DNA of 52,954 bases, from the sequence record SRR20825006_2797; one strand, given 5' to 3'. The translations under genes were made by a program, and so were the position numbers. Under the pieces are notes generated by a model. That model was not told the origin of the DNA, did not search any database, and was given only the letters and a program-made list of their open reading frames with translations. Position 1 is the first letter of the stretch. Each line of letters opens with the position of its first letter. This document shows positions 36,690 to 52,954 of the stretch, piece by piece.

Positions 36690-36728
36690 AAATCTATTCG
36701 GACACTGAATATTTTCAAGGGTGTAGAT

Positions 36729-37913: not shown

Positions 37914-39662
37914 GTGTCCAATCAAAGACCGAACCAGTTGGGTCATGAAGAAACCCTGATCGAGACGGCGCGGAAATCCCGCAGGGCTATTCTCGCAGTC
38001 GGGGGCTTCAGTGTTGCCCTTAATGTGTTGATGCTGGCAGGTCCGCTTTACATGCTGCAGGTTTACGACCGGGTGCTGGTCAGTGGTTCCCTGCAAACGC
38101 TGATCGCGCTTACAGCTTTAATCGCCGTATTGTTCATTGGATACGCGCTTATTGATGCGATCCGGTCGTCGATGCTGGTTCATGTGGCTGCCCGGATTGA
38201 GCGTGAAATGGCCCCTTTGGTTTTCGATGCCATTCATCGTCGGTCACTCCAGGATTCAGGTGCCAAGGACGGTCGGGCAATGAAAGACCTGGCGGAACTT
38301 CGGCAATTCATGGCTGGCCCGACGGTCAAGGCGGCTTTTGACCTGCCACTGGCGCCACTCTATTTTTTGATCCTCTTCCTCATGCACTGGACGCTCGGTG
38401 TACTGGCCCTGATTGGTTCAGCCGTGATTTTTGCGCTGGCTCTATATACTCAAAAGGCAAGCGAAGCCTCGTTGCTCACCTCTGGTGAAGTCAGTAATAC
38501 GGGCGCTGTCTTCGCCCAGAATGCGTGGCGCAGTTCTGAATCGGTTCACGCGCTGGGTATGCAAAAGACTGTCCGTGACAAATGGGTTGATGCCACCACC
38601 GAAGCGGATGCCACAGCTATTCGAGCATCTGACACAATCAATACCGCCGCCGCCGCCACACGTGCTTTCCGGATGTTTTTGCAATCCGCCTTGCTTGGTG
38701 CGGGCGCCGTGCTCGCCATTGCTGGTGTTGCAACGCCAGGTGTGATCATCGCAGGCTCTATCATCGGCGCGCGGGCCATTACTCCAATTGAGCAAATAGT
38801 TTCGCAATGGCGTTCGATTGTTCGTGCCAGGGCCGCGCGAAAACGGCTTGCGTCTTTAACGGGCGCTACCGAGCAGAAGGCAGCGCCGATGACCCTTCCG
38901 GCCATCACCGGAAAGCTGTTGGTAGAGAATGTATTCGCAGCCTTGCCAGGCCAGCAAAAACCTTTTCTTCAAGCAATCTCGTTCTCGGTTGAGCCGGGCG
39001 AGATTGTCGGTGTGATCGGAGCGAGTGGCTCGGGCAAGACGACCTTGGCCCGGGTGTTGACCGGAGTCTGGCCCTATGCGCTTGGCGCAGTGCGACTTGA
39101 TGGTGCCGAGATCAAGGAGTACCAGCCGGACCAGTTGGGACAACAGCTTGGCTACTTGCCGCAGGCGGTCGAACTTTTACCCGGTACCATCAGTGAGAAT
39201 ATTGCCCGCCTTCGTCCAAACGCCGACCCAGAAAAAATCGTGGCTGCGGCCAAACGTGCGAACGCCCACGACATGATCCAGTCTTTTGCAGATGGCTATA
39301 ACACTGAGTTGGGTATTGGTGGCGAACGTCTTTCGGCCGGTCAACGCCAACGTATTGGGTTGGCGCGCGCCTTGTTCTCTGATCCCAAGCTGGTGATCCT
39401 GGATGAGCCGAATGCCAATCTCGACCATGAGGGCGATGAGGCGCTGAATGACACACTCAAGCTGCTCAAGGATGAGAAGGTGGCTGTTGTGATCATCGGA
39501 CACCGCCCAACCACGCTGCGCCATGTCGACAAAATAGTGTTGATGCATGAGGGTAAAGTGCAGGCACTCGGACCGCGAGATGAAATTCTGTCGAAGGTTC
39601 TGAGAACTCAGAAGCGGTCTGCTACCGGCATCAAGCTGATAGAGAAGGGCAAGACGCAATGA
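37914..39662 (+). CDS. Type I secretion ABC permease/ATPase (PrtD/RsaD family)
   Basis: LYMLQVYDRVL, GASGSGKTTL, GYLPQ, LSAGQRQRIGLARA and LDEPNANLD. No C39 domain. Confidence 0.92.
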   Translation: MSNQRPNQLGHEETLIETARKSRRAILAVGGFSVALNVLMLAGPLYMLQVYDRVLVSGSLQTLIALTALIAVLFIGYALIDAIRSSMLVHVAARIEREMAPLVFDAIHRRSLQDSGAKDGRAMKDLAELRQFMAGPTVKAAFDLPLAPLYFLILFLMHWTLGVLALIGSAVIFALALYTQKASEASLLTSGEVSNTGAVFAQNAWRSSESVHALGMQKTVRDKWVDATTEADATAIRASDTINTAAAATRAFRMFLQSALLGAGAVLAIAGVATPGVIIAGSIIGARAITPIEQIVSQWRSIVRARAARKRLASLTGATEQKAAPMTLPAITGKLLVENVFAALPGQQKPFLQAISFSVEPGEIVGVIGASGSGKTTLARVLTGVWPYALGAVRLDGAEIKEYQPDQLGQQLGYLPQAVELLPGTISENIARLRPNADPEKIVAAAKRANAHDMIQSFADGYNTELGIGGERLSAGQRQRIGLARALFSDPKLVILDEPNANLDHEGDEALNDTLKLLKDEKVAVVIIGHRPTTLRHVDKIVLMHEGKVQALGPRDEILSKVLRTQKRSATGIKLIEKGKTQ

Positions 39663-41002
39663 CCACGGGTCCGATCGTATTTGAGGACAGCGACCGTCTG
39701 ACGCTGATCGACCTCGGCCTGCGTAGACTCATGGTGCAGGGCCTGGTGGTGGTTGGTGTGTTGTTTGGTGGCTTGTTCATCTGGTCAGCAGTGGTGCCAC
39801 TTGAAAGCGCGGTGGTCGCGCCGGGTACAGTGCAGGTTTCGGGTGCCAACAAGACGGTCCAGCATTTGGAAGGTGGGATCGTAAAGGAGATCCTGGTCGC
39901 GGATGGAGATACTGTTGAAATCGGCCAGCCACTGATCCGCCTGGATACTTCAGGTGTTGCGGCCTCTCTTGCCAGCCTTGAGGCCCAATTGTTCACCCTG
40001 GCAGGAGAAGAGGCGAGGTTGCTGTCGGAGCGGGAGGGACGTGACGTCGTTGTCCGGACCCCCACAATCGAATTTCTGGAAACTCTAGAGGACGGCAAGC
40101 GACGCGTGGCGCGCGTTATTGCAACTCAGCAGGCCATCTTGGATACGCGTACTCAAGCACTCGAAACCGATGTCCAATTGCTCTCATACAAAATAGATCA
40201 ACAGGGTGAACGCGTTGCGGGTCTGAAAGACCTCATGAGTTCGAATTCCCAACAGATATTGATCCTTGAAGACGAGCTTAACGGGCTTGAGGCATTGTTC
40301 GAAAGAGGGCACGCGCCAAAGAGCCGAATGCTGGCGCTAAAGCGCGAGAAGGAACGTCTTGCTGGCCAACAAGCATCTCATAGAGCGGAGATCGCTCAGA
40401 TACGTACGGCGATGGCGGAAGGCCAGCTGCAGATATCGAGATTGGAAACCGATACGCGTGAGACTGTGCTGACTCAGTTGAAAGAGATCCAGTTGGGTAT
40501 TGAAGACCTTATGGAGCGTCGCCAGTACGCGGCTGACCAATTGGCTCGTACTGAAATTGTTGCGCCTTATGCAGGGCAGGTTTTTGGTGTGAATGTGCAT
40601 GCGGTCAATGGCGTGATTGGTGCGGGCGCGCCTTTGCTATCCATCGTCCCGGATGACGAGGAGTTGGTGATGATCGTCCGAATATCCCCAAGCGAAATCG
40701 ACCGGGTGCAGAATGGGGATTCTGTGCGGATACGCTTTCCCTCGCTCAATGCGTCTCGTACGCCCGAAGTCAGAGGCGCTCTGAAGACCGTGTCGGCTGA
40801 TGTCCTGGTCGAACAGGATGGCATCGCGCCGTATTACCGCGCTGTCGTCGAGCTGACTGAGCAGGAGAAAGAGCGCGTCGGCACCGAGCTGACGCCCGGT
40901 ATGCAAGCGAACGCCATGATCCAGACAGGTCAGCGCACGGCTCTGTCATACTTGACCAAGCCACTTGCAGACTTCACGGCCGTATCGTTCAAAGAAGAAT
41001 AG
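39659..41002 (+). CDS. Type I secretion membrane fusion protein (HlyD/PrtE family)
   Basis: TVQHLEGGIVKEILVADGD, coiled coil, and LTPGM...TGQRTALSYLTKPL. Confidence 0.92.
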   Translation: MTTGPIVFEDSDRLTLIDLGLRRLMVQGLVVVGVLFGGLFIWSAVVPLESAVVAPGTVQVSGANKTVQHLEGGIVKEILVADGDTVEIGQPLIRLDTSGVAASLASLEAQLFTLAGEEARLLSEREGRDVVVRTPTIEFLETLEDGKRRVARVIATQQAILDTRTQALETDVQLLSYKIDQQGERVAGLKDLMSSNSQQILILEDELNGLEALFERGHAPKSRMLALKREKERLAGQQASHRAEIAQIRTAMAEGQLQISRLETDTRETVLTQLKEIQLGIEDLMERRQYAADQLARTEIVAPYAGQVFGVNVHAVNGVIGAGAPLLSIVPDDEELVMIVRISPSEIDRVQNGDSVRIRFPSLNASRTPEVRGALKTVSADVLVEQDGIAPYYRAVVELTEQEKERVGTELTPGMQANAMIQTGQRTALSYLTKPLADFTAVSFKEE

Positions 41003-41011: not shown

Positions 41012-42241
41012 TCAGGGCGTCTCGACAGCGGGCCGGGTGTTTGCCGCCGACAGTTCTGCGGTCTTGTCAGCCGATTGAATTTGCTTGGAATATTTTCTTC
41101 CGAGGTCCTGCAGCGGGCGTTCGAGATAGTGATAGCTCAGCGTTGCAAGCGGAATGGTCACTGCCAGCGTCAAGGCTGCAATGAACGCCATCATGGCAAG
41201 TGCAGAGACAGGTGAAGGATCGGCACCAAGCATCGGCCCAAGCAATTCTGCGAATGCGAACAAGATGATGAAATGCAAGAGGTACAGCCCGTAGGAGATA
41301 TCTCCGAGGAAGACGAGCTTCTTGGAGGCCAGCCAGCCTTCACTACGACCATAAAAAGTTATGGTGACAAGAAATGTTGCGGCAAGAGATACGACCAGAA
41401 CAGAAGACGGGTCCACGTGAACCCATGGCCGGAAAATCCGCTGGACGAACATGCCAGCGAAAAGTGCACCGGCAATGAGAAGGTAGCGAAACCATTTCGG
41501 AAACCGAAAATATAGGTCGGCGACCATGCGTCCATAGTTCGGTATCAGAGCACCCAGAAAGAATGCGATCAGATAGACATTCACATGGCCGATGTGCAGC
41601 GGTGCGTACATTAGTGCCACCAGCACAACAAGCGTAGCGGCTATAAGGGCCGGCCGACGCGTCAGAACGACAAACAAAGGCATCAAAAATGATGCAATGA
41701 TCTCTGTCCGGATGGTCCACGCCGGAGAGTTCAGGCTATTGGAGTAGCCGACGGCATTGAGAAGCGTTTCTATGAGACCGGGGTCCTGGTTGAAATATCC
41801 ATTCATCCAATTCGTGGCCCCAGCCGTGGGCGCATCACTGAAATACAGCCAGTGCATGGCCGCAGCAAACAATGTCACCGCGATCAGTAGCGGATACAGG
41901 CGAAAGAGACGTCGAACATAATAGCCAGCCAGATGAGCAAGTCCTTTGCCCTTCGACCGGCGCAGGGAAAGCGTGAGAACTGTCCCGCTCAACACGAAGA
42001 AGAGAACAACTGCGGCAGGTCCGTTGAAAAATCCGATCAGGCCGTGAACCAGCATATGGAACGGTTCAGAAAAATTGAGACCGTGCCGTTGCGGTGTATC
42101 CAGTCCAGAAACCTTGAACAACAGGAATGCATGATAAATCACGACGAAAGAGGCGGCAGTGCCTCTCAGGCTCGCAAGACTGTTTGAGAACGTCACCTGC
42201 TCAGACGAAGAAGGATTTGGGAGAATTGGTTGTGAAGTCAT
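41012..42241 (-). CDS. Acyltransferase-3 (OafA/ExoZ-like) membrane O-acyltransferase
   Basis: SLRGTAA..V...H, AVVLFFVLSG, RRLFRLYP, WTIRTE, LGDISYGLYLLH and YLERP. Confidence 0.88.
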   Translation of the reverse strand: MTSQPILPNPSSSEQVTFSNSLASLRGTAASFVVIYHAFLLFKVSGLDTPQRHGLNFSEPFHMLVHGLIGFFNGPAAVVLFFVLSGTVLTLSLRRSKGKGLAHLAGYYVRRLFRLYPLLIAVTLFAAAMHWLYFSDAPTAGATNWMNGYFNQDPGLIETLLNAVGYSNSLNSPAWTIRTEIIASFLMPLFVVLTRRPALIAATLVVLVALMYAPLHIGHVNVYLIAFFLGALIPNYGRMVADLYFRFPKWFRYLLIAGALFAGMFVQRIFRPWVHVDPSSVLVVSLAATFLVTITFYGRSEGWLASKKLVFLGDISYGLYLLHFIILFAFAELLGPMLGADPSPVSALAMMAFIAALTLAVTIPLATLSYHYLERPLQDLGRKYSKQIQSADKTAELSAANTRPAVETP

Positions 42242-42304
42242 AACGCAAATCTTTTCAAGGTATTGTGCAAGCACCGCATGAGCGCCAGCATACAGGTGCC
42301 TGCC

Positions 42305-42748
42305 CTAGGCAAACTCGGCATATGGATTGAAGCAAGCCGTCATGGAGCCGAGATAGGTCGTGGGTTCAGTGGCGGGCTCATCAAGCAACGTATAGTCGGT
42401 GCGCACGATAAAGGCGGTGAGCAGGGCGCGTTCGAAATCGGCTTGATGATCAGACAATTTCGGAATTCCGCCCCCGGATACAGTTGATCCGAGCCCAATC
42501 AATTCCAGTCCGCGCAGCGTGGCCGACTTGATGAAGGAAGGTGCAGCCTCAGCCTCCCGAAAGTCTCGTACGAAGGTCTCAAATTCCGCTTTGTCCATTT
42601 TGAACGGACCGACCAGCCGTCTCAGCGTGCGCCGGATATGCCCCTGATCGGTCGTCAGCAGAACCGTGCCAGCCCCAGCTGCTGCCGCTACGCCAACGCC
42701 GCCTAAAATCATGGCCCGGCGAGAAAGTGAGAGTCTGTTCCGGGTCAT
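42305..42748 (-). CDS. Tat-signal small protein, putative hitchhiker subunit of the GMC dehydrogenase
   Basis: Twin-arginine signal LSRRAMIL. Its start overlaps the GMC stop (ATGA). Confidence 0.6.
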   Translation of the reverse strand: MTRNRLSLSRRAMILGGVGVAAAAGAGTVLLTTDQGHIRRTLRRLVGPFKMDKAEFETFVRDFREAEAAPSFIKSATLRGLELIGLGSTVSGGGIPKLSDHQADFERALLTAFIVRTDYTLLDEPATEPTTYLGSMTACFNPYAEFA

Positions 42749-44205
42749 ATGGTCACCTTCGCAGTCAGCTTTTCAGCTGCCCTCAAGCTGAGAGCGGCAA
42801 CGGTCAGGCTGGGGTTGCCGGTTCCACATGTTGGGAACACAGACGAGCCGACCACAATGAGATTTCGGTATTTGTGGTGAATGAGATCTCCATCCACCAC
42901 GGAGCTTGCCGGATCGGACCCCATGCGCATCGTGCTTTGCAGATGCGACTCCGTCCGGCGTATCCGGCGGAACACAACCTCTTCTACGGGTAGGGGTTGA
43001 AGGATCTCGTCCAAACCGTCGATGGCTGCCTGCAAACCTTTCTTGGCGTAGTCGCTGGCGCCCATGAAGTGAACGATTGGCTCTCCGTTCTCGCCGAGTT
43101 CGACGCGATTTCCGTCTTCAAGCATCTCTTCGACAACGATAGAGATTGGAAGCGTCTGCCGCCATTTCGAGCGCTCTGTCCGAAGGCCAAACTTCCAACG
43201 ATTTTCAAAGTAGATAAGCGCTGCGCCGCGATCGGCGCGGAAGTCGCCATCTGCGAAACTATAGTCCAAGCCAGTCGTGATAGTGGAACCGTCGAAATTC
43301 TCCATACCATCCAGCAGGATTTCTAGATCAGCCCCATAAGTCTCGTTTAGGCCGGCACCGGTCAGCGCATCGGCCATTCCAGATGCCTGCATGATAGCAG
43401 GGCTATGAATGGCATTTGCGCCGAGTACAAACACGTCTCCGGTAACCGAGAATGTCTTTCCCGCGGACTCGAAACTCGCGCTCTTTACCGTATTATTCGT
43501 CGAGTCAAAGCTGGTGACGCGGCTGTTCAGGATCACCGTCACGCGATGGTCGTTATACACATCCATCAGGCCGTTCTGGGCCGTGAACTTCGCATCGGCC
43601 GGGCAAATCATGCATCGCAAGGAGGCGCAGCAGGGGCCGCGTCCTTCCGTGGCAACTCGGGCACGAGCAGTGGGAATAATAAAGTGTGTGTCGGGTCGCG
43701 CCGCCTTCATCACCTGATCGGGCGTAGAAGGATGATGCGGTGGTTGTGGAAACGGTTTCGAACGTGGCGCGATGCCGTGCATGTCCGGATCGCCTGAAAC
43801 CGACATGATGGTTTCTGCATCGCAATAGTAGGGTTCCAGCTCATCATAGCTGACAGGCCAGTCCTGGCCGACGCCGTACTTGGACTTCAGCCGGAAATCA
43901 TTTGGCAGAAATCTGGGCGATTGGGCGAACCAGCAATTCGTCCCGCCACCAAACCCGATGGTGAAGTTCCACGGCTTGTCGCTGTCGGAATGATAAGTCG
44001 TTGCCCGGTCGATCGAGCTGTTCCGGTTTTCGTTCACTTGCCACGAATGGGCATTATAATCGCCGCGTTCGATGACGAGCACTCGACCGGTTATTGTCTC
44101 CAGTAATTTCGACAGAAAGAAACCGGAGCCAAAGCCGGAGCCGACCACGACAAAGTCGTAATGCTGTGAATTCACAGTTTCCGGCTGTGCCAGATTTTTT
44201 AGCAT
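42745..44205 (-). CDS. GMC family FAD oxidoreductase with Cys-rich Fe-S motif
   Basis: VVVGSGFG, GFGGGTNCW, DWPVSYDELEPYY, CCASLRCMICP, HLQSTMRMG, and NPSLTVAALSLR. Confidence 0.88.
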   Translation of the reverse strand: MLKNLAQPETVNSQHYDFVVVGSGFGSGFFLSKLLETITGRVLVIERGDYNAHSWQVNENRNSSIDRATTYHSDSDKPWNFTIGFGGGTNCWFAQSPRFLPNDFRLKSKYGVGQDWPVSYDELEPYYCDAETIMSVSGDPDMHGIAPRSKPFPQPPHHPSTPDQVMKAARPDTHFIIPTARARVATEGRGPCCASLRCMICPADAKFTAQNGLMDVYNDHRVTVILNSRVTSFDSTNNTVKSASFESAGKTFSVTGDVFVLGANAIHSPAIMQASGMADALTGAGLNETYGADLEILLDGMENFDGSTITTGLDYSFADGDFRADRGAALIYFENRWKFGLRTERSKWRQTLPISIVVEEMLEDGNRVELGENGEPIVHFMGASDYAKKGLQAAIDGLDEILQPLPVEEVVFRRIRRTESHLQSTMRMGSDPASSVVDGDLIHHKYRNLIVVGSSVFPTCGTGNPSLTVAALSLRAAEKLTAKVTI

Positions 44206-44634
44206 GACCCCACCTTTGATCCCCATTCATGCAGCGCTGCAGCATGGGTCTGAAAAGAGACCCGATAGCGCCGGTATTCTTTATTCATCTGGCGCTATAT
44301 TTGCAATTCGCATGCTAGAGGGGATCGTCCCCAAATAGTCAGGCTCTCCATCTAACATTTCTACACGGGGGCGTCTCCCGAAACCCGGGCGTGTTCGCGC
44401 CGGAAACTTGGGACATGACCGAAAAAGGGGAATTGAGGCAAGGTAAGCGCCATGGGTGCACAACAAGCGAGCATTCCAATGACAAGCGCAATGAAAATCA
44501 ACCGGATCAAATTATCAAAATCTAGATAGAGATCCGGCAGTGACGTCCTTGTACTATTAACCAGCCAGAATTTCGCACTGTAGCAGCCTGCAACAGTATT
44601 GAGAACGAGCCAGAGAAAGCCTCCATTCCAGAAC

Positions 44635-46170
44635 ATGTCCAAGAACGACACGCCTCCCGAGGATGACGACCTCAACAATATCAATACGACTGCGGCGGGC
44701 CTTGCGAGTGGAGCTGCGATCACCGGCGTCGCTCAGGGCTTTCGAGTTGTGCTGGGGTTTGTTCAGGGTATCGTCTTGGCGCGCCTGTTGCTGCCGGCTG
44801 ACTTCGGTCTCGTTGCCATGGTTGCGCCCGCCGTCGCCTTCGCGGCCATGGTCAAGGAACTCGGTCTGAACCAGGCGACGGTACAGCGAGACCAGATATC
44901 GCAGCAGATTGTGAGCAATCTTTTCTGGCTCAGCGTTTCGATGAGCATTTTGCTGGCCGTCATCATGGCGGCGTGTGCGCCTTTGCTTGCCGATTTCTAT
45001 GGAGAGCCTGAAGTCCAGGCGCTCGCGGTCGCGTATGCTGCAACGATCGTGGTCTGGGGCCTGCAATCCCAGCCGGCCGCCTTGTTGGCTCGCAAGCTCG
45101 CGTTCAAGACCATCGCGATCATCGAGGTCGTTTCGTTGCTCGCCGGGTTCATTGTCGCGGTCGCAACCGCCTATCTGACCCGAAGCTATTGGGCGCTCTT
45201 CTACGGCACGATTGTTACGGCGGCTGTTTCCACACTCGCCAGCTGGATGGCCAGCAAGTTCAAGCCGATGAAAATAGGCAGTGCGGAAGGCATGAGGGAG
45301 ATGATCGGGTTCGGCTCCAGTATCGCCGGATTTGACCTTCTCAATTTTGCCTCACGAAATGCCGACAATATTCTAATCGCGCGCTTTCATGATGCGGTCG
45401 AACTCGGTCTTTATGACCGGGCCTACAAGCTTCTGCTCTTCCCATTGCAGAAAATTACTTATCCGCTCTCCAGGGTGATGGTGCCGTTCCTTTCTCGTAA
45501 TGTGAACCAGCCTGAGCGCTACAAGCGTGCTTACTTTGTGGCCGTCACCATTATTCTTGTTGCCGCGCAGCCGGGCGTTCTGGTCGGCATACTGTTCGCC
45601 GACGAAATTTTCCTCGTCCTGCTGGGCAAGGAGTGGGTGCCGGCGGCGCCAGTTTTCATGTGGCTCGGAATTGCTGGTCTTGTTCAGGTTATGACCTCGA
45701 CCATGGGTTGGCTGTTCGTCAGCCAGGGGCGAGGTAAGCACTATCTCATGGTCGGCGCCGTTACTGCCGTGATTTCCATAACCTCCTTCGTTGTGGGATT
45801 GCCCCAAGGGGCCGTAGGCGTGGCTGCGGCGTATGCCATTGGCGATCTAGTGTTCAAGACGCCTTATGTCTGGTTCATGGCATCCCGCAATGGGACCGTC
45901 AGGTTCGGAGATTTCGTGCGTCTGCTCATGCCGCACCTGTTGGCGTTGGCAGTCGCAGCTGCTGCACTTTATTTCACGGGGCAGTCGTTCCAGCAGATCG
46001 GCTTTCTACAAATTGGCCTGCTTTTGGCGCTCTCTTATGGCATATACCTTGCTGTTCTGACCTTGTTCAAAGAAAAGGTTTCGATGGCGCGAGAACTGCT
46101 TGAAATGGTCTGGAACAGCATTCAGTCCAAGCGACAGGCTCGAGCGGCTCAAAAGGGAATGCAGGAATGA
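44635..46170 (+). CDS. Wzx flippase 2 (WzxC-like)
   Basis: LARLLLPADFGLVAM, NADNILI and LGLYDRAYKL. Confidence 0.88.
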   Translation: MSKNDTPPEDDDLNNINTTAAGLASGAAITGVAQGFRVVLGFVQGIVLARLLLPADFGLVAMVAPAVAFAAMVKELGLNQATVQRDQISQQIVSNLFWLSVSMSILLAVIMAACAPLLADFYGEPEVQALAVAYAATIVVWGLQSQPAALLARKLAFKTIAIIEVVSLLAGFIVAVATAYLTRSYWALFYGTIVTAAVSTLASWMASKFKPMKIGSAEGMREMIGFGSSIAGFDLLNFASRNADNILIARFHDAVELGLYDRAYKLLLFPLQKITYPLSRVMVPFLSRNVNQPERYKRAYFVAVTIILVAAQPGVLVGILFADEIFLVLLGKEWVPAAPVFMWLGIAGLVQVMTSTMGWLFVSQGRGKHYLMVGAVTAVISITSFVVGLPQGAVGVAAAYAIGDLVFKTPYVWFMASRNGTVRFGDFVRLLMPHLLALAVAAAALYFTGQSFQQIGFLQIGLLLALSYGIYLAVLTLFKEKVSMARELLEMVWNSIQSKRQARAAQKGMQE

Positions 46171-47186
46171 ACTATCGCTCTCTCGCAGATATGTATGACG
46201 CTATAACGATGGGGCTTGGCCGGTTGCCGGACAACATCGATCTAATCGTGGGCGTTCCGCGCAGCGGCTTGATTCCGGCGAACTTCCTTGGCCTTTTGCT
46301 GAACCTGCCCATCACGGATGTTGAAGGTTTGATTGAGGGGCGCGTCATGGCTTCGGGACGCACGCGTCGCGGTGCGGCGGTGAACAAGACCTTCGCCGAG
46401 ATGAAGAATGTGCTGGTGATTGATGACAGCGTGTTCCACGGCAATTCCATTCGCGCTGTAAAGGAGCGGCTGGATGTCGAACTTGAAGGATACAATCTGA
46501 CGTATTGCGCCGTTTTCGGTCCCAAGATGACGCACCCGGATATCGACATTGTTCTGGACGCTGTACCCCAGCCGCGAATTTTTCAATGGAACCTCTTCCA
46601 CCACGGCCTGCTTAAGGAATGCTGCATCGATATTGATGGCGTCCTTTGCCTGGACCCCACGGCCCAGCAAAATGATGACGGCGACCGCTATCGCGAATTT
46701 ATCCTCAACGCGATACCGCTGAATCGTCCGACAAAGCCATTAGGCCATCTGGTAACGAGCCGACTTGAAAAGTATCGCCCGGAAACGGAAGCTTGGCTCG
46801 AGAAGTGGGGCATCCAGTACGAGTCGCTCAACATGCTAGACCTGCCAAACAAGGAGGCCCGCCAGAAAGCAAAGGCGCATGGGTCGTTCAAGGCGGAAGT
46901 CTATCGCAACAAGAACAGCATTATGTTCATTGAAAGCGAACACGACCAAGCGGTTGAAATCGCCCGTCTATCTGGCAAGCCAGCGCTATGCATTGAGACG
47001 CAGCAAATGCATATGCCTGCCAGCGGTGATCTGCGCACAATTCAGCAATCCATGAAAGGGTTGCCTCGGCGGATTGTGCTTCAGAAGACGCCCTTGTCAA
47101 ACAAACAGTCGATGAAGAATTTTGTTCGTTCAATTGTGGGCGACAGAGGATACGCGCTCATGAAGAAGGCGTCGGGTAGATCCTGA
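46167..47186 (+). CDS. Type I phosphoribosyltransferase fused to a HAD-like phosphatase
   Basis: IVGVPRSG and PRPP loop VLVIDDSVFHG. C-terminal DIDGVL, VTSR, FKAEVY and FIES. Coupled to wzx2 by ATGA. Confidence 0.75.
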   Translation: MNYRSLADMYDAITMGLGRLPDNIDLIVGVPRSGLIPANFLGLLLNLPITDVEGLIEGRVMASGRTRRGAAVNKTFAEMKNVLVIDDSVFHGNSIRAVKERLDVELEGYNLTYCAVFGPKMTHPDIDIVLDAVPQPRIFQWNLFHHGLLKECCIDIDGVLCLDPTAQQNDDGDRYREFILNAIPLNRPTKPLGHLVTSRLEKYRPETEAWLEKWGIQYESLNMLDLPNKEARQKAKAHGSFKAEVYRNKNSIMFIESEHDQAVEIARLSGKPALCIETQQMHMPASGDLRTIQQSMKGLPRRIVLQKTPLSNKQSMKNFVRSIVGDRGYALMKKASGRS

Positions 47187-47412: not shown

Positions 47413-49125
47413 ATGGCAGGGCTACGGTGGGCAACACTCGGGCATAGATCCAACCTATCCGACGATGACAATCTGACACCAATCATCAAGTTTGGGACAA
47501 TCGGCATCATTGTGCTGGCAAGCTTGTTGCTGGTTCCGATTTTCAACTTCATTGCCAATTATTCGGCCGCTTGGCACCCTGAACGCGCGCTTGCGATTTA
47601 CATTGCAATCGCAGTTTGCTGCGCGCTGGCTGCCATCATCAAGTATGATGATGTGCCAAAGTATCTTCGGATAATCATCAAGGGTCTCGCCCTCTTCCTC
47701 GGCTTTTACAGCCTGTGGTTGGGCGCGGATTTTTCGAGTGTAAACGAGAACGTTCAGAGCGGCGCTGGAAACTTTATTGTTGTCGTTCCATTCATTGTTT
47801 TCGCCGCCACGATTGCCGCCATGTTTCGGCCATCCCTGGCGCTGTTACCTCCCTTGTATCTATTGATCCACAAGGACCTGACACGGGTTCTGTCTGGCGC
47901 GAAGGAACTCGGTCGCAATGATTATGCGCCGCTTGTGGAAGTGCTTGTCTTCACGGCCGGCGCGGTTGTGGCGCTTGGCCTGTTCGTAAAAGCGGTAGAG
48001 ATCGCCAAGCGGAAGCAGATTATCCCGGAGCGCTTTCACACGGGTATTCAGCAGGGCATCACCGCGTTGCCACTCATCATTCTTTGCATGGCGGTCGGCG
48101 CTCATCTGGGCAACTACTTCATGTCTGGCTTGGCGAAGATTCACCTTGATGGAGGTGTCTTTGCTTGGGTTTCTGACAATCCAACCAGTTCTCTGATGTT
48201 GGCTGGCTATAATGTCGGTGCCGCACCAGGGGCGTATGCGCCCGGGCTTTTCGGTTTTGCATATTCAGTTCTTCGCGCAGTCGAGCCGTATCTCAACGTC
48301 GTAACATTGGCGGCGCAGTTCTTGTGCTTCCTCGCTTTTTTGCGCGTGCGAACCATGTTGGCCTTCACCGTCTTCTTCGACATGATGCACATCGCAATCT
48401 TTCTGCTGACCGGCGCGTTGTTCGTTCCCTGGATTTTGTTGAACAGCCTTCTCGCATCGGCTTTTGTCGCGATGAAGATGGATCGACTTCCCAAGGAGGC
48501 GATCATTGCTGGCGTACTTGTCACGATCATGGGACATACAGTTTTCTACAATGCACGCCTTGGTTGGTATGATAGCCGGGAATTGCGAGATTCCTATTTC
48601 ACCGCGATCACCGATACAGGTGAAGAGTACCGGGTCCCCAATAGCTTCTTCCGGCAGTCTTCTTATCTCATGTACACACGTAACTTTGGATATCGCGAGC
48701 ATCGCGGACCGTCTCGTCACGTGCCGACGTCGCAATGGGGGCAGATTGGCATCGGCGTTCACTCGGACGAAATCGCCAATTACGATATCATGAAAGCTAC
48801 CAAGACTTGCTCCTATCATTCACCGTACGAAAATGATGCGTCTATCGTCGATTTTGATGCCGGAGCCGCGTCGAGCTTCATCGGCTCTCATCACCAGATG
48901 ATGCTGCAGCAGAAAATTAAATCGGGCAAAATGCCGTCTTACCACCTATATCCTCACCATCATTATTCCATGCCGGTGAGATACAAGGGGTTTGAAGCGT
49001 TGAATCTGGAAAACATCGCAGGCTATCGTTACAATGTCGAAACGGTGTGTCTCGACTGGCAAGATGGCGCATTCAAGCGAGATGTTCTGGTGAGCACAAA
49101 AACCGACATCATTCCGGTAAACTAG
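47413..49125 (+). CDS. HTTM-like polytopic membrane protein
   Basis: About 10 TM helices, NYFMSGLAK...W, FDMMHIAIFLLTGALF, and a soluble C-terminal domain. Confidence 0.55.
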   Translation: MAGLRWATLGHRSNLSDDDNLTPIIKFGTIGIIVLASLLLVPIFNFIANYSAAWHPERALAIYIAIAVCCALAAIIKYDDVPKYLRIIIKGLALFLGFYSLWLGADFSSVNENVQSGAGNFIVVVPFIVFAATIAAMFRPSLALLPPLYLLIHKDLTRVLSGAKELGRNDYAPLVEVLVFTAGAVVALGLFVKAVEIAKRKQIIPERFHTGIQQGITALPLIILCMAVGAHLGNYFMSGLAKIHLDGGVFAWVSDNPTSSLMLAGYNVGAAPGAYAPGLFGFAYSVLRAVEPYLNVVTLAAQFLCFLAFLRVRTMLAFTVFFDMMHIAIFLLTGALFVPWILLNSLLASAFVAMKMDRLPKEAIIAGVLVTIMGHTVFYNARLGWYDSRELRDSYFTAITDTGEEYRVPNSFFRQSSYLMYTRNFGYREHRGPSRHVPTSQWGQIGIGVHSDEIANYDIMKATKTCSYHSPYENDASIVDFDAGAASSFIGSHHQMMLQQKIKSGKMPSYHLYPHHHYSMPVRYKGFEALNLENIAGYRYNVETVCLDWQDGAFKRDVLVSTKTDIIPVN

Positions 49126-49136
49126 CGGCGATCAAA

Positions 49137-49523
49137 ATGACTGAAAATGTAATCGTCTATGATGGTGAATGTCCATTTTGTAGCCAGTATGTGAAGATGC
49201 TGCGGATACGCGAGTCGGTGGGGACCGTCCGTCTGATAGATGCCCGGTCGTCCGATGAAACGGCTATCTTCGCCCGCAGCAAGTACGATATGGATCAGGG
49301 TATGGCCGCGCGCATCAGTGGCGAATGGTATTATGGGGATGATTGCATCCACATATTGTCGATGATCAGCAGTCCTGTGACAGTGTTCAACAAGTTGAAC
49401 GGCTGGGTATTTCGTAGCCCCAAGCGAGCACGCGTGCTTTATCCCGTTATGCGGAGCAGTCGCAATCTCGTTTTGCGTTTGCTGGGCCGGCGGAAGATCG
49501 GACAATCACTCTCGGAAACCTGA
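49137..49523 (+). CDS. DCC1-like thiol-disulfide oxidoreductase (DUF393)
   Basis: IVYDGECPFC (DxxCxxC), WYYGDD and RNLVLRLLGR. Confidence 0.85.
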   Translation: MTENVIVYDGECPFCSQYVKMLRIRESVGTVRLIDARSSDETAIFARSKYDMDQGMAARISGEWYYGDDCIHILSMISSPVTVFNKLNGWVFRSPKRARVLYPVMRSSRNLVLRLLGRRKIGQSLSET

Positions 49524-49564: not shown

Positions 49565-50665
49565 TCAGTTCGCTATCGCAGCTGCTTCTGGTTCGGCGGC
49601 AAAAGCTGCCTTCGCGCGGTTGCACGCATCCAGAAGCGTGTCGATCTGGTGATCTTTGTTCAGGATATCGCGCTTGGAATAATCACGCGTTTGTTGTTGC
49701 ATGGCCGCATAGAAACCTTGGTCATCCCAAAGCTTCCTCACCGCCGACACCCAGTCATCGATTGTTGCGTCCGGGCTGATTAGGATACCGCCCTCGCCAA
49801 CAGATTCCGACAAGCCTCCAATTTTTGTGGCGACGCACGGAATGCCAGAGAAGTGAGCTTCTGATGCAATGCGCCCCCAGGCTTCCTGCCATTGGCTCGG
49901 GATGAGGAGGATCTTGGTTCTGGAATAGACTTTGCGCATATCATTGGTGCGCGGCTTCAGAGTCACATTTCCGCATTTTCGTGCCCACTCGACATTCTGT
50001 TTGCTGACATCTTCGGGAAGTGGCCAGCCTTCAACAAACTCGAACGGAATATCAGGGCAGCGTTCAGCGATCTGGAACGCAATATCGCGCCCTTTCTTGG
50101 GGTGCGGATTAATAAAGGAGACGACCTCTGGTGCATGATCGCAGATATAGCGCTCGGCCATGAACATGGGCGGAATGGGTACCGCGTCTATGCCATACTT
50201 TTCCTTGTAAGCATCCGCAGTAAATTGGGAATTCGCAACATAGATTGTCGAAGCCGGGAGGTCGGCAGGGCTGGCTTCATACTTGTGGAATTCCACGTCT
50301 CGGACGTAGACTACGAGTGGAATGCCAAACTGGGCGAAATGCTTTGCGGTCTTGAAGGGCTTGCCCGCTGTGACAATCAATACGTCCGGCTTGGCTTGTT
50401 TCAGAACCGCGTCACCTTCTTCCCAGACAAACCATTTTCGATAAACAGGATACCCGGGCAGCTTGTCGCGCGTATACTTCATAGGCGTCAACTTGAGCGC
50501 AGCCCGTACAAGGTAACCGAGCCGGTCTTTGTGGTAGAGGCCGGACAGTACTGAGACTTCATGACCGCGTTTGATGATTTCCAGCGACAATTCATGCGTA
50601 CTGGATTGTGATCCGCCTGCAATTTGCGGCGTATGCGGATGAGCAGTGACGAACAATAGGTTCAT
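49565..50665 (-). CDS. GT4 glycosyltransferase
   Basis: GGSQSSTHEL, ANSQFTA and EAWGRIASEA (EX7E). Confidence 0.88.
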   Translation of the reverse strand: MNLLFVTAHPHTPQIAGGSQSSTHELSLEIIKRGHEVSVLSGLYHKDRLGYLVRAALKLTPMKYTRDKLPGYPVYRKWFVWEEGDAVLKQAKPDVLIVTAGKPFKTAKHFAQFGIPLVVYVRDVEFHKYEASPADLPASTIYVANSQFTADAYKEKYGIDAVPIPPMFMAERYICDHAPEVVSFINPHPKKGRDIAFQIAERCPDIPFEFVEGWPLPEDVSKQNVEWARKCGNVTLKPRTNDMRKVYSRTKILLIPSQWQEAWGRIASEAHFSGIPCVATKIGGLSESVGEGGILISPDATIDDWVSAVRKLWDDQGFYAAMQQQTRDYSKRDILNKDHQIDTLLDACNRAKAAFAAEPEAAAIAN

Positions 50666-50690
50666 GGTGTGTCCTGTTCGGTAGGGCGGG

Positions 50691-51761
50691 TTACTGGTCG
50701 GCCAGGGACGTTGCACGTCCGAGCACCGCTTCCAGTGTATCGAGTTGATGATCGCGTTGCAGGGCAGGGCGCGCTGCATAGTCTAGTGAGGCCTGGACCA
50801 GTTGATCGTAATGAGCCTTATCGGTCCACAATCTCTTCAGGGCGCTTGACCAGGTTTCTTCAGGCTCTGACAAATCGATCAAAACCCCGCCGGGTCCTAC
50901 AGATTCTGGCAATCCGCCTTGGGCCGATGCTACAACAGGAATTCCGTTGATATGAGCCTCAGCCGAAATGCGTCCAAAAGCCTCTTCCCATCGACTTGGG
51001 GCCAGCACAATCTTGGCTTCGGCATAGACCTGCTTCATGTCCTGGGTCCGGGCCTGAACCCGAACGTTTGGAAGAGTCGCCAGCGCGGAGTTGAGTTCGT
51101 CGAGGTCTTCCTTGGATAGGGTCCAGGTCATCTGGAACGTGAACGGGATCTCGGGACAGGCGCGGGCGCAATTCAGCGCGATGTCGAGTCCTTTGTGCTT
51201 GTGCGGATTCACAAACAGGACAGACTCACGCCGCGTTTCCGTCTGGTACATTTCTGGACGAATGAGAGGATAGATGATTTCCGACTTCACGCCGAATGCG
51301 TCATCGAACTTTCGCGCCGTGAATTCGGAATTTGCAATAAACTGGCAATCTGAAAACTCTTTGAGGTCTCCCCCCAAATCTTCGAATTCTACATTTCGCA
51401 GGTAGAAAACCAGCGGTACATTCCGGGATTTGAAGCCTTTCGCCAGCCGGGCTGGAAACCCTGACTGTAGAATCACGACGTCGGGTTTGAATGCGTCCAC
51501 GACTTCGGATGTTGAATCCACAGGGTGCCAAGCACGATAAGTGGTGTAGCCGCACACGTCATCGCTGACGATCGTTCCAGACTTCACTTTCAACATTGTA
51601 CGATGACGTAAGCCGAGCCAACCGTCTCCGGTCAGGCCTGAAAATACGCTGACGTTGTGCCCTCGAGCTCGCAATTCCAGAACGAGTTCATGCGTGCTGG
51701 ATTGGGCGCCGCCCGCAATCTGCGGAATATAGGGGTGTGCGCTCGCAATGAGTATTCGCAT
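50691..51761 (-). CDS. GT4 glycosyltransferase (paralog of the adjacent gene)
   Basis: GGAQSSTHEL, ANSEFTA and EAFGRISAEA. Confidence 0.88.
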   Translation of the reverse strand: MRILIASAHPYIPQIAGGAQSSTHELVLELRARGHNVSVFSGLTGDGWLGLRHRTMLKVKSGTIVSDDVCGYTTYRAWHPVDSTSEVVDAFKPDVVILQSGFPARLAKGFKSRNVPLVFYLRNVEFEDLGGDLKEFSDCQFIANSEFTARKFDDAFGVKSEIIYPLIRPEMYQTETRRESVLFVNPHKHKGLDIALNCARACPEIPFTFQMTWTLSKEDLDELNSALATLPNVRVQARTQDMKQVYAEAKIVLAPSRWEEAFGRISAEAHINGIPVVASAQGGLPESVGPGGVLIDLSEPEETWSSALKRLWTDKAHYDQLVQASLDYAARPALQRDHQLDTLEAVLGRATSLADQ

Positions 51762-51804
51762 ATCGTGCTCTCGACTGTGCCAGACGAAATGATGAGTGCA
51801 CGAT

Positions 51805-52954
51805 TTACGCCAGAACTTCACCCGTCAATACATTTGCGACGGTCTCGGCAAGTTCTTCGGCGATCAGACCAAATCCTTCCACATTGAAGTGGATTCCATC
51901 GTCCATTTGCTCATCGACATCCGTGGTCGTCGCCCCGATATAAACGTTGTCGTAAAGTGATGCGATGTAGGCTTGGGCATCCCGGATAGCTGACAGCGCG
52001 CCTTCGGGGCCATCGAGCCAGGGGCCCAGCTCCGGAAAGTCACCCAATTCCTGAATGAAGACGGGGATGTCTGCGCCATACCGGTTCCAGAGGTACTCGA
52101 ACACGCTCGTCGTAGCGTCGATCAGAGCGTCGACAATTGAAGAAGTGTTGCTTCCATCAATCGCGCGCGCATCATCTTCGCCTTGTGCCCAGATAATGGC
52201 GTCGAGATCCTCGCCCGCATTGAGGGCTGCATCTATCTTTGAAACCGCGGTTAGCAGCGCTGGCCCCGGGGAATCTGTATCCACATTCCACCAATAACTA
52301 TTGGCATCGGCCAGCGGGTTGGAGCCGCTGCCGCCTTTGGCGGCGTTGATCAGCGTGGTGTCACCATTGAGATAAGCCTCGATGGAGTCCTCGAACACAA
52401 CCGATCCGATATCGCCTGGGCTCTCGTCATCCTTATGGCGATAGAAGTATCGCTCGGCGTTCGACTGACCGGTGAAGGCGATATAATCGTAATCTTCCGG
52501 GTTGAGTGTGTGAGAAATTGGGGCGATTGAATCGTCTTCGACGATTTCAATCCAGTCGATCCGGGCCTTCTCGCCTGAATCATAGACCGCTTCCACGGAG
52601 ATTTGGTCGCCGGTTTCGAGAGCGACCGAAGCTTCATGAACATTGAACACATCATTATCTGCATCTGCCAGCCAGCTTGTGACGATCTGGCCGTTTACTT
52701 TGATCTGATAGGCCGAGACTCCGTCGCTCTCATCAAGATGGGACAGGCGAACCAGATAGTCGCCGTCAGCACCTGTGAACTGTCCCTCGGCGACGCTGGT
52801 TGTTGCGCTATCCTCCGCGCGTATAACGGCGTCGTTCGAAGCGGTCGAACGGGATTCAGTGATGAACCCATCAGTGAGGACCAAGTCTTCTGCTTCTGTG
52901 CGGCCAAGTCCAATATCCGCAGCTGGAGGTGGCGGCGGAGGCGGCAGCAAGGAC
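51805..52954 (-). CDS. C-terminal part of an acidic modular protein: poly-Pro linker, CBM-like domain and SASA/SGNH acetylesterase (5' end outside window)
   Basis: The frame is open at the window edge. PPPPPPP, then an EAED...beta-sandwich...ARIDWIEI module, then FTGQSNA, WAQGEDDA and DGIHF. Confidence 0.75.
   Translation of the reverse strand, partial: SLLPPPPPPPAADIGLGRTEAEDLVLTDGFITESRSTASNDAVIRAEDSATTSVAEGQFTGADGDYLVRLSHLDESDGVSAYQIKVNGQIVTSWLADADNDVFNVHEASVALETGDQISVEAVYDSGEKARIDWIEIVEDDSIAPISHTLNPEDYDYIAFTGQSNAERYFYRHKDDESPGDIGSVVFEDSIEAYLNGDTTLINAAKGGSGSNPLADANSYWWNVDTDSPGPALLTAVSKIDAALNAGEDLDAIIWAQGEDDARAIDGSNTSSIVDALIDATTSVFEYLWNRYGADIPVFIQELGDFPELGPWLDGPEGALSAIRDAQAYIASLYDNVYIGATTTDVDEQMDDGIHFNVEGFGLIAEELAETVANVLTGEVLA

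Follow-up and report, generated by a model that had tools for sequence, protein, structure and literature searches.

How is ribofuranose installed in bacterial glycans? An explanation has come only recently, and for the gPRT-PRP/CriT-CrpP enzymes only, and a gene next to a polysaccharide flippase of Hyphomonas sp. L-53-1-40 raises the question of whether another enzyme does the same. The window, by which we mean the whole stretch of DNA analyzed (52,954 nt, SRR20825006_2797), encodes a protein with a type I phosphoribosyltransferase (PRT) domain and a HAD phosphatase domain, hereafter PRT-HAD. In a first-pass annotation the protein was proposed to ribosylate the polysaccharide repeat unit before flipping. 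In our analysis the best explanation is that PRT-HAD probably carries out a PRPP-dependent transfer of ribofuranose-5-phosphate and then its dephosphorylation, at the cytoplasmic side. If this is true, PRT-HAD represents a second, far more compact solution built on the textbook PRT fold.

Domain structure of the PRT-HAD protein

The open reading frame is a real, conserved gene: 3680 database proteins match its product at E<=1e-3 (6761 candidates scored). Its ATG (46167-46169) shares the letters ATGA with the TGA of the Wzx2 open reading frame, bearing out the start/stop overlap described in the first-pass annotation, and the motifs listed there are all found in the translation: IVGVPRSGLIP (residues 27-37) and VLVIDDSVFHG (82-92) of a PRTase, and CIDIDGVLC (153-161), VTSR (196-199), K242 and FIESE (254-258) of a HAD enzyme. 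The proposed two-domain make-up also holds beyond the motifs, as both folds were matched in an AF2 model of the protein (mean pLDDT 90.4, pTM 0.83). No TM-like segment was found, the peak 19-residue hydropathy being 1.46, and the protein is predicted to be soluble and cytoplasmic. Conservation of individual residues was counted over 143 diverse representatives sharing 34-51% identity with the Hyphomonas protein (P0001).

Table 1 Features of the PRT-HAD gene and its neighbors in the window.
Feature	Position	Strand	Basis or remark
PRT-HAD fusion gene, candidate ribofuranosyltransferase/5-phosphatase	46167..47186	+	339 aa
Type I phosphoribosyltransferase domain, residues 1-146	46167..46604	+	fold match, profile match, conservation
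Capless HAD phosphatase domain, residues 147-283	46605..47015	+	fold match, profile match, conservation
C-terminal basic helical tail, residues 289-335, lower pLDDT	47031..47171	+	secondary structure and pLDDT blocks
Wzx2, MOP/Wzx flippase, upstream translationally coupled gene	44599..46170	+	PF13440 1.3e-72; NF007773 MOP flippase
GMC-type FAD sugar dehydrogenase, catalytic subunit	42745..44226	-	PF05199; candidate oxidase of the added ribose
Small subunit, twin-arginine signal LSRRAMILGG	42305..42748	-	presumed Tat hitch-hiker partner of the dehydrogenase
Polytopic membrane protein, 570 aa	47413-49125	+	TM-like segments; no Pfam match
DCC1-like thiol-disulfide oxidoreductase, overlaps the polytopic membrane protein gene	49047-49523	+	
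Two GT4 glycosyltransferase genes	49565-50779 and 50691-51821	-	homologues of the GT4 flanking PRT-HAD elsewhere

Judging from the model, the PRT half is structurally closest to the xanthine-guanine PRTs. Residues 1-161 matched H. pylori XGHPRT (7kl6_A) with VIA Z 14.8 and an rmsd of 3.0 over 133 aligned residues, the same structure was matched by profile at 7e-5 with the motifs aligned, and other PRTs matched at Z 8-14, the five-stranded alpha/beta PRT core being present. GVPRSG aligns with aRGGl of the purine PRTs and VLVIDDSVFHG with their vLvvDDvaDTGeT, and the aromatic F-x-W motif, part of the stretch F139-Q-W141-N142 that occupies the hood position, aligns with their hood. The PPi loop G29-P-R32-S33-G34 is highly conserved among the 143 representatives (R32 in 137, S33 in 138, G34 in all 143), and so are the PRPP motif D86-D87-S88...G92 (Asp or Glu at position 86 in 141, D87 in 141, G92 in 140), D127 (139 of 143) and W141 (142 of 143). 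In the 5-phosphate loop, only G92 and S88 are kept from the canonical D-T-G-x-T and the Thr residues are lost. The Pfam model PF00156 scores 24.0 bits on PRT-HAD, under its gathering cut-off of 26.3, and was found in 80 of 80 relatives at E<=1, with a best value of 2.3e-10.

The HAD half resembles the phosphatases of polynucleotide kinase-phosphatases: residues 146-279 matched the T4 Pnkp 3'-phosphatase (5uj0_B) with VIA Z 12.7 and an rmsd of 3.2 over 119 aligned residues, Pnkp1 (4xrp_A) was matched with VIA Z 12.5 and by profile at E 0.014, and further HADs followed at Z 8-9.5. Its catalytic motifs are D155-x-D157 (motif I), T197 (II), K242 (III) and E256 (IV, with Glu in place of Asp), present in 138 and 141, 135, 143 and 139 of the 143 representatives, respectively. 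No Pfam or NCBIfam model matched this half, and among 80 relatives HAD_SAK_2 was the sole HAD model matched (5 of 80, best E 0.14, not significant). In the relatives the protein ends around profile position 286, or other domains take the place of the tail that follows the HAD domain in the Hyphomonas protein; this tail might serve for docking to the membrane or to a partner.

These features suggest a sequence of reactions. The PRT domain would bind PRPP and, in an inverting transfer, attach ribofuranose-5-phosphate to one of the hydroxyls of the repeat unit carried on undecaprenyl-PP, so that the Ribf-5-P becomes beta-linked; the capless HAD domain would then strip the 5-phosphate by an aspartyl-phosphate mechanism using D155 and D157, and the co-translated Wzx2 would flip the finished unit. 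We infer the flipping by Wzx2 because the adjacency of the two genes is conserved and a natural fusion of them exists. A less certain fourth step may follow after flipping, in which the Tat-exported FAD dehydrogenase encoded nearby would act in the periplasm and turn the C5-OH that dephosphorylation has freed on the ribose into a carboxylate. Its product would be beta-D-riburonic acid, the residue that ends the side chain of the Mesorhizobium loti exopolysaccharide (EPS).

Polysaccharide loci and natural fusions

PRT-HAD was found in Wzx/Wzy-type polysaccharide loci across many genera. To count its neighbors we searched 80 loci by tblastn with the proteins of the window and took a neighbor as present when a single segment covered 50% or more of the query; the counted genomes are kin. 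The most conserved neighbor was the Wzx2 homologue, present within the flanks of 76 of the 80 loci. The name wzx2 is apt in Hyphomonas because another Wzx, the first of the window, lies at 35142-36689. The GT4 and the GMC dehydrogenase each had a homologue in 63 of the 80 loci, and the GT4 homologues share 42-51% identity outside Hyphomonas; the GT4 pair may build the acceptor. The gene order with strands is Wzx+ PRT-HAD+ GT4- small- GMC- in Mesorhizobium and GMC+ small+ PRT-HAD+ Wzx- in Sinorhizobium, and annotated Paracoccus and Bosea plasmids carry Wzx, PRT-HAD and glycosyltransferases (GTs). In the Mesorhizobium loci, the Wzx beside PRT-HAD is the sole one there and occupies the exoT position.

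The two genes directly downstream of PRT-HAD are distributed differently. The 570-aa membrane protein was found in two of the 80 loci, both from Hyphomonas, and the DCC1-like gene in eight, including all six Sinorhizobium/Ensifer loci, and the membership of either gene in the module is uncertain. A protein atlas placed the membrane protein among unnamed clusters with weak leads to lipase maturation factor and MauE (score 0.85). It was considered as the GT-C enzyme of a route with a lipid-linked donor (see below) and dropped because it is confined to the two Hyphomonas loci.

At 50% identity the family falls into 2784 clusters, of which 1530 reach E<=1e-30, and its public label is "phosphoribosyltransferase" alone, with the GO term 'nucleoside metabolic process'. 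One characterized member would allow thousands of genes to be re-annotated and a glycosyltransferase family to be added, and glycoengineers would gain a small PRPP-dependent ribosylation module. The occurrence is sporadic (10 of 401 sampled Pseudomonadota genomes). Ten long relatives were scanned for additional domains, and seven of them contain a GT domain (GT4 in three, GT2 in two, GT8 and GT28-C in one each), one of the GT4 fusions having an FkbM methyltransferase domain as well; the remaining three showed Wzx (PF13440, in P0171), a methyltransferase only, and nothing extra. In the GT fusions the PRT and HAD domains stay together as a single unit. The proposal that the sugar is added before flipping is thus supported from several sides: the soluble nature predicted for the protein, the conserved PRPP/PPi and HAD DxD residues, the Wzx/Wzy loci, and the fusions to GTs and Wzx.

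Known ribosylation systems and alternative explanations

The established route to beta-Ribf consists of a PRPP-dependent gPRT and a HAD-type PRP, with known members in Klebsiella O4/O7 (ORF5/ORF7), T. composti (7shg), Salmonella (STM0726), H. influenzae (Bcs3) and C. jejuni (Cj1432), and the literature agrees with the way in which this precedent, including the CriT/CrpP of Haemophilus Bcs3, had been described in the first-pass annotation. The chemistry proposed for PRT-HAD is the same, with PRPP as the donor, beta-Ribf-5-P placed on a glycan and a HAD enzyme removing the 5-phosphate, and the two systems also have in common two domains, polysaccharide loci and frequent fusion to other GT modules. 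They differ in domain order, as the PRT precedes the HAD domain in our protein whereas PRP/CrpP precedes gPRT/CriT in the known enzymes. The transferases differ as well: PRT-HAD has a canonical type I PRT of compact size, whereas gPRT/CriT has been described as a GT fold of a new kind, containing helical bundles and only resembling PRTases. Unlike that of the gPRT-PRP/CriT-CrpP enzymes, the HAD domain of PRT-HAD is capless and Pnkp-like, and the known enzymes mostly belong to ABC-transporter pathways whereas PRT-HAD adjoins Wzx. Neither 7shg nor Bcs3 was among the 42 profile matches (E<=10) or the best 50 fold matches, which leaves room for a weak relation.

The suggestion of a different architecture stands with respect to the compact classical fold and the reversed domain order, but its novelty is less than implied, since the chemistry is known from gPRT-PRP/CriT-CrpP and a gene of similar description, wbaM, is genetically tied to beta-Ribf; should it belong to the family, wbaM would be the one genetic precedent there. 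According to a review, wbaM of E. coli O183 is 'a putative phosphoribosyltransferase gene' whose part in transferring D-Ribf onto D-GlcpA is confirmed; the Ribf-(beta1-4)-GlcA side branch depends on it, and the difference between S. boydii 6 and 10 is an IS in wbaM. WbaM (S. boydii 10/E. coli O183) resembles PRT-HAD by description only, namely a putative phosphoribosyltransferase of a Wzx/Wzy O-antigen cluster that yields a terminal beta-Ribf on GlcA, and differs in that O183 has no reported oxidase partner and its residue stays ribose. A blastn search (distant) with the PRT-HAD gene found no match in 5,426 E. coli genomes, and when a profile built from 13 low-GC relatives was searched against the protein database, none of its best 120 matches bore the name of E. 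coli or Shigella. The protein atlas gave clusters at family level only. PRT-HAD had no match in K-12 either, as expected of a strain without Ribf. When 10 low-GC representatives were looked up, the sole name returned was 'orotate phosphoribosyltransferase', and 400 sampled genomes of another class gave four matches, every one in high-GC loci.

Three other functions can be considered for PRT-HAD. One is the synthesis of a lipid-linked donor: the PRT domain would phosphoribosylate undecaprenyl phosphate, the HAD domain would remove the 5-phosphate, the Wzx2-type flippase would export Und-P-Ribf and a membrane GT would add the ribose in the periplasm. PRT-HAD would then be a soluble counterpart of the three-component pentofuranose system (C. 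youngae ORF15 PPPRS-PRP, MATE flippase, GT136), which, like the mycobacterial DPPR/DPA pathway, draws its ribose ultimately from PRPP and has a 5-phosphatase (a PRP phosphatase in the three-component system), a MOP-superfamily flippase and redox tailoring of the pentose. The constancy of the Wzx-type partner, even fused in P0171, the second Wzx and adjoining polytopic membrane protein of the Hyphomonas window, and a Rhizobium homologue near a UbiA/GtrA/FAD-oxidoreductase/SDR/GT87 cluster speak for it too. We nevertheless regard this route as improbable. Both of these systems rely on a UbiA-type membrane synthase, the type of the known polyprenyl-P phosphoribose synthases, and on a GT-C, whereas PRT-HAD has no membrane segment and no GT-C-like neighbor is conserved, given how rare the 570-aa protein is; the tailoring enzymes also differ, being DprE1/E2-type epimerases there and a Tat-exported GMC dehydrogenase here. 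Furthermore, the Mesorhizobium loci have that single Wzx at the exoT position, and seven of the ten fusions join cytoplasmic Leloir-type GT domains. The glycans linked to such genes bear beta-Ribf or RibfA, which fits one inversion from alpha-PRPP and therefore counts against a lipid route, since that route yields alpha linkages.

Another possibility is that the HAD half alone is catalytic, as a sugar- or lipid-phosphate phosphatase in precursor supply, and that the PRT half is a regulatory ligand binder like PyrR or PurR. PyrR, PurR and a ppGpp-binding protein are indeed among the structural matches, PRT folds have often been recruited as sensors, and the canonical 5-phosphate loop is degenerate. 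Nevertheless, 137 or more of the 143 distant relatives retain every one of these elements: the R-S-G of the PPi loop, the acidic pair, D127, and the F/W of the hood. This conservation fits catalysis better than sensing, and the two domains are inseparable in the GT fusions; if WbaM belongs to this family, the loss of wbaM, which removes exactly one Ribf, argues against such a role as well, and we consider it very unlikely. Least convincing is a glycan-unrelated nucleobase PRT with a 5'-nucleotidase making a nucleoside or nucleoside-like small molecule from a base and PRPP, which has the purine PRTs as best sequence and structure matches, the aligned hood F-x-W and the public GO term on its side and is nonetheless highly improbable in view of the constant polysaccharide-locus setting in many genera, small plasmids included, the fusions to GTs and Wzx, the sporadic occurrence, which is not that of a salvage enzyme, and the five other, ordinary PF00156 proteins above the cut-off in the nearest genome, by which salvage is already covered. 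Two-step ribosylation at the cytoplasmic side remains the explanation that we favor.

The GMC dehydrogenase pair and a possible route to riburonic acid

A Tat-exported GMC dehydrogenase and its small subunit accompany PRT-HAD in at least five named genera, which is a new observation. The small-subunit gene overlaps the GMC gene by 4 bases, its RR motif is present in 35 of 35 cluster members, and the Cys motif CCASLRCMICP of the GMC protein is kept in 47 of 47. Among solved structures, the GMC protein comes closest to FAD glucose dehydrogenase (6a2u_B, 1.2e-44) and to the large subunit of fructose dehydrogenase (7w2j_A, 2e-36); for the small subunit, neither a solved relative (E<=1) nor a match in Pfam or NCBIfam was found. 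The periplasmic FAD sugar dehydrogenase complexes of B. cepacia (FAD-GDH, 6a2u) and Gluconobacter (7w2j) have a 3Fe-4S cluster and a Tat hitch-hiker subunit. The GMC pair resembles them in its catalytic subunit, Cys-rich motif and small Tat-signal subunit; it differs in having no adjacent cytochrome c subunit gene and in its proposed substrate, the C5-OH of a polymer-bound ribofuranoside, whereas those complexes act on free sugar.

When up to three candidates per genome were scored in the 401 sampled Pseudomonadota genomes, all five in which a close orthologue of GMC was found (55-97% identity) had PRT-HAD at a distance of 2-4 kb. Among the 391 genomes lacking PRT-HAD there was no such orthologue, the best identity there being 39%. 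The GMC gene was absent from all six Paracoccus loci, two of which are short contigs, from three of the 54 Mesorhizobium loci, and from two more Mesorhizobium-like genomes. In loci of the M. loti group, the exo cluster contains the GMC/PRT-HAD pair, which is placed between Wzx at the exoT position and a GH16 gene (exoK-like), and adjoins GT4 and UDP-glucose dehydrogenase genes.

Reviews state that the EPS of M. loti R7A ends in a terminal beta-D-riburonic acid; the loci that we compared are those of other members of the M. loti group. The joint travel of GMC and PRT-HAD, together with this residue, suggests a pathway from ribose to riburonic acid. We therefore tentatively propose, at somewhat less than even confidence, that PRT-HAD, Wzx and the Tat-exported GMC/small-subunit pair form a portable cassette making beta-D-riburonic acid on polysaccharides. 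The solved GMC relatives speak against the riburonic step, as they oxidize anomeric or secondary hydroxyls rather than turning a primary alcohol into an acid, and so does the absence of GMC from the Paracoccus, Mesorhizobium and Mesorhizobium-like cases given above. The literature passages on riburonic acid do not discuss its biosynthesis, and a literature search for a Mesorhizobium phosphoribosyltransferase tied to exopolysaccharide or exoU found nothing relevant. Riburonic acid is known in only a handful of polymers, and a plant receptor perceives one of these as a symbiosis signal. If the cassette has this function, riburonic acid would for the first time have a biosynthetic route, genes could be named for the terminal sugar of the M. 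loti EPS that is read by the Lotus receptor EPR3, and riburonic acid would be predicted in polymers of Hyphomonas, Sinorhizobium and Bradyrhizobium, a pathway that the link to GMC makes directly testable.

Fold and predicted chemistry of the PRT-HAD protein

The first-pass annotation had described a type I phosphoribosyltransferase (PRT) joined to a HAD phosphatase, with a start overlapping the wzx2 stop, and this was borne out: all the quoted motifs were found in the translation, and the ATG shares four bases (ATGA) with the TGA of the upstream gene, which encodes a Wzx/MOP flippase (PF13440, 1.3e-72; NF007773 MOP flippase). The Pfam match to PF00156 lies below threshold (24.0 bits vs 26.3, residues 21-102) and NCBIfam models gave nothing useful for the protein. 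The AF2 model, built with 80 relatives as input, is confident (pLDDT 90.4, pTM 0.83), and comparison with about 48,000 representative PDB chains confirmed both domains. Residues 1-161 resemble xanthine-guanine-type PRTs (7kl6_A, Z 14.8, rmsd 3.0, 133 aligned; 4z1o_A, Z 13.8), and residues 146-280 the HAD phosphatase domains of T4 Pnkp (5uj0_B, Z 12.7, rmsd 3.2, 119 aligned) and Pnkp1 (4xrp_A, Z 12.5); re-examined Foldseek matches agree. The family profile matched solved proteins at the sequence level (7kl6_A 7e-5, 4z1o_A 1.2e-4, Pnkp1 0.014), and profile alignments placed GVPRSG onto the aRGGl PPi loop of purine PRTs, IDDS...G onto the DDvaDTG PRPP motif, and F-Q-W onto the F-P-W hood. The C-terminal ~50 residues form basic helices modelled with lower confidence, and no membrane segment was found in the protein.

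Features of the window around the PRT-HAD gene
Feature	Coordinates	Strand	Content
Retropepsin-like ORF	23561-24097		178 aa, PF13975 (7.2e-24)
First polysaccharide block	28286-37715		beta-barrel porin, Wzz/tyrosine-kinase protein, GT4, Wzy, Wzx1, GT2
Wzy	33255-34556		
Wzx1	35142-36689		flippase
Type I secretion pair	37914-41002		PrtD-type ABC permease/ATPase (TIGR01842, 6.5e-194), HlyD adaptor
Second block	41012 to window end		acyltransferase_3, 147-aa protein, GMC, Wzx2, PRT-HAD, 570-aa membrane protein, DCC1-like, two GT4s, SASA-like esterase
acyltransferase_3	41012-42274		
Small subunit	42305-42748	-	147 aa
GMC	42745-44226	-	FAD sugar dehydrogenase
Wzx2	44599-46170	+	flippase
PRT-HAD	46167-47186	+	339 aa
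Membrane protein and DCC1-like pair	47413-49523		
SASA-like	51805-52950		sialate O-acetylesterase family

Type I PRTs invert at C1 of alpha-PRPP, and DxD HAD phosphatases act through an aspartyl-phosphate intermediate. Because of these two chemistries, the simplest reading, which we consider likely, is a cytoplasmic, PRPP-dependent transfer of ribofuranose 5-phosphate followed by dephosphorylation: the PRT domain would move beta-Ribf-5-P onto a lipid-linked repeat unit, the HAD domain would then take off the 5-phosphate, and the ribosylated unit would finally be flipped. A capless HAD would fit such a polymer-bound substrate.

The same chemistry has been proven for the gPRT-PRP (7shg) and Bcs3 CriT-CrpP enzymes. 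In PRT-HAD, by contrast, the two domains stand in the opposite order, the PRT fold is canonical and the HAD is Pnkp-like and capless; the enzyme would be a distinct architectural variant of the known chemistry. Structure prediction and comparison with the gPRT/PRP enzymes, proposed earlier as a check, yielded XGPRT-like and Pnkp-like folds but no link to 7shg or Bcs3, either by sequence profile or among the top-ranked fold matches. This type of protein has probably already been glimpsed genetically as WbaM, a putative phosphoribosyltransferase of E. coli O183 and S. boydii 10 and a candidate family member. A review credits wbaM of E. coli O183 with a confirmed role in adding D-Ribf to D-GlcpA, and published passages give an IS in wbaM as the difference between S. 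boydii 6 and 10.

Conserved partners, fusions and alternative readings

A scan of species-representative genomes gave at least 600 pattern matches; 583 of those listed carry a gene for a relative, and the analysis went on with the best 80 loci (54 from Mesorhizobium, the rest from Paracoccus, Sinorhizobium/Ensifer, Hyphomicrobium, Hyphomonas, Bradyrhizobium, Salinarimonas and MAGs). When the window proteins were compared with these loci by tblastn (E<=1e-8, at least half of the query in one segment), homologues were found for Wzx2 in 76/80 and for GMC and each GT4 in 63/80, as well as for GT2 (67/80) and Wzz/PTK (52/80), both of which are generic families. That the gene order around PRT-HAD varies by genus speaks for the association itself being under selection, rather than a single operon simply having been inherited. 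Annotated plasmids show a similar context. On the mobilizable plasmid pMARC4 of Paracoccus marcusii (15,289 bp), PRT-HAD is accompanied by genes for two acyltransferases, a PAP2 phosphatase, a Wzx-like protein, two GTs and a nucleotide-sugar dehydrogenase, with little else beyond replication, toxin-antitoxin and mobilisation genes; the set has the look of a mobile module for converting surface polysaccharides. On a Bosea plasmid, Wzx and PRT-HAD lie within an EPS cluster.

Seven of the ten long relatives scanned contain a GT domain (GT4 in three, GT2 in two, GT8 and GT28-C), one GT4 fusion having an extra FkbM methyltransferase domain; the others are a Wzx fusion, one with a methyltransferase only and one with nothing further. 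The 799-aa metagenomic representative P0171 has an N-terminal PRT-HAD module followed by Wzx (PF13440, residues 342-633). A route through a lipid-linked donor, like the three-component pentofuranose system, would agree with Wzx being the constant partner of PRT-HAD, yet we consider it improbable: the enzyme is soluble and fused to Leloir-type GTs, a conserved GT-C is absent from the neighbourhood, and the configuration in linked glycans is beta.

Among 143 representatives spanning both domains (34-51% identity to the query), the putative catalytic residues G29, P31, R32, S33, G34, D87, G92, D127, F139, W141 and N142 are near-invariant in the PRT half, and D155, D157, G158, T197, R199, K242, E256 and S257 in the HAD half; position 86 is acidic in 141/143. 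A PRT domain that is regulatory, leaving HAD alone catalytic, is very unlikely given this conservation of its catalytic residues. Two-step ribosylation before flipping by a different architecture, as the first-pass annotation had supposed, is supported at the sequence level by these residues, the Wzx loci and the GT and Wzx fusions, and PRT-HAD would be a cytoplasmic glycan-building module.

The family comprises 3680 proteins at E<=1e-3 (6761 candidates scored in a 90%-clustered database, where named relatives carry generic labels such as "phosphoribosyltransferase"); a profile search of 1.84 billion representatives clustered at 50% identity retrieved 2784 proteins at E<=1e-3, of which 2318 pass 1e-10 and 1530 pass 1e-30. 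Members are also present in Clostridia and Desulfitobacterium, and occurrence is sporadic (10/401 sampled Pseudomonadota genomes, 4/400 genomes of another class). This distribution, the polysaccharide-locus context and the five ordinary PRTs already in the nearest genome make a nucleobase-salvage role the least probable reading of all. PGAP puts the GO term 'nucleoside metabolic process' on family members at three loci (L081 on pMARC4, L082 and L084); if the glycan role is right, this label is probably a systematic mis-annotation.

A probably exported dehydrogenase and the riburonic acid of Mesorhizobium loti

The GMC gene overlaps by 4 bases that of the small subunit, which carries an N-terminal twin-arginine signal (LSRRAMILGG); an RR motif lies within the first 60 residues in 35/35 members of its cluster. 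Among solved proteins, GMC is closest to the FAD glucose dehydrogenase catalytic subunit (6a2u_B, 1.2e-44) and its fructose dehydrogenase counterpart (7w2j_A, 2e-36), and the CCxxxxCxxCP motif is found in 47/47 orthologues. Five genomes of the 401-genome Pseudomonadota sample have a close GMC orthologue (55-97% identity), and PRT-HAD lies 2-4 kb away in 5/5, four of which are one genus; the 391 genomes lacking PRT-HAD contain none, the best reaching 39% identity with at most three candidates scored per genome. Five PRT-HAD genomes are without GMC, an absence confirmed locally in two Mesorhizobium-like genomes. Among the 80 loci, GMC is found in Mesorhizobium (51/54), Sinorhizobium (5/5), Ensifer (1/1), Hyphomonas (2/2), Bradyrhizobium (1/1) and Hyphomicrobium (1/3), and in 0/6 Paracoccus loci, two of them short contigs. 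The association of this dehydrogenase with PRT-HAD is new in this analysis.

Loci of the M. loti group start with exoP-like, galU (exoN-like), three GT2s, GT4-like, Wzx and PRT-HAD, and continue with GT4, the small subunit, GMC, UDP-glucose dehydrogenase, GH16 (exoK-like) and GT2. We take UDP-Glc dehydrogenase, GT4, PRT-HAD and GMC with its small subunit to be the genes beyond the succinoglycan-type set of the S. meliloti exo cluster. From work by Muszynski et al. in 2016, RibfA is said to be linked 1-4 to alpha-GlcA. The gene order agrees with the published M. loti exo order, given in a review passage as exoQFYXUKTLAMONP. According to review passages, the EPS of M. loti R7A is an octasaccharide that bears O-acetyl groups, consists of Glc, Gal, GlcA and D-riburonic acid (5:1:1:1) and ends in beta-D-riburonic acid, and the truncated exoU EPS is missing the terminal riburonic and glucuronic acids; the passages on riburonic acid hold no discussion of its biosynthesis, which primary papers may treat.

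The extra genes would account for the GlcA-RibfA terminus: UDP-Glc dehydrogenase and GT4 would supply GlcA, PRT-HAD would add Ribf, and GMC with its small subunit would oxidise it. Because C5 oxidation needs the 5-phosphate removed, the HAD step would have a second rationale. PRT-HAD, Wzx, GMC and the small subunit could be a portable cassette making beta-D-riburonic acid on polysaccharides, a proposal we hold tentatively, with slightly less than even confidence.

Layout of the window and further observations

About 25 kb hold two Wzx genes but a single recognisable Wzy, which suggests either that two polysaccharide loci adjoin here or that one locus has acquired a cassette for a side branch. 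The type I secretion pair lies between the two blocks, and no substrate gene for it was identified. The contig ends shortly past the window and truncates the cluster. The SASA-like and acyltransferase_3 genes bordering the second block have homologues in Hyphomonas loci only (2/80) and hint that the polymer may be O-acylated and de-acylated.

The 570-aa polytopic membrane protein matches no known family, and its gene overlaps that of the DCC1-like thiol-disulfide oxidoreductase; a DCC1-like gene lies 4-5 kb from PRT-HAD in 6/6 Sinorhizobium/Ensifer loci, adjoining a different 496-aa protein without a Pfam match. For the 570-aa protein, the protein atlas gave weak leads to lipase maturation factor and MauE (score 0.85), and an electron-transfer partner here for the cytochrome-less dehydrogenase is pure speculation.

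At L082 (Rhizobium sp. Kim5, pRetKim5c, 672-16147), the surroundings of a longer (439-aa) PRT-HAD homologue resemble the decaprenyl-P-ribose to arabinose pathway in layout: UbiA prenyltransferase, GtrA, FAD-binding oxidoreductase, SDR and GT87 genes lie a few genes away, and a 758-aa glycosyltransferase and a type VI secretion cluster follow. The remaining genes of the window are housekeeping, and the retropepsin-like aspartyl protease ORF lies between those for pyruvate kinase and a CobT-like DBI_PRT protein.
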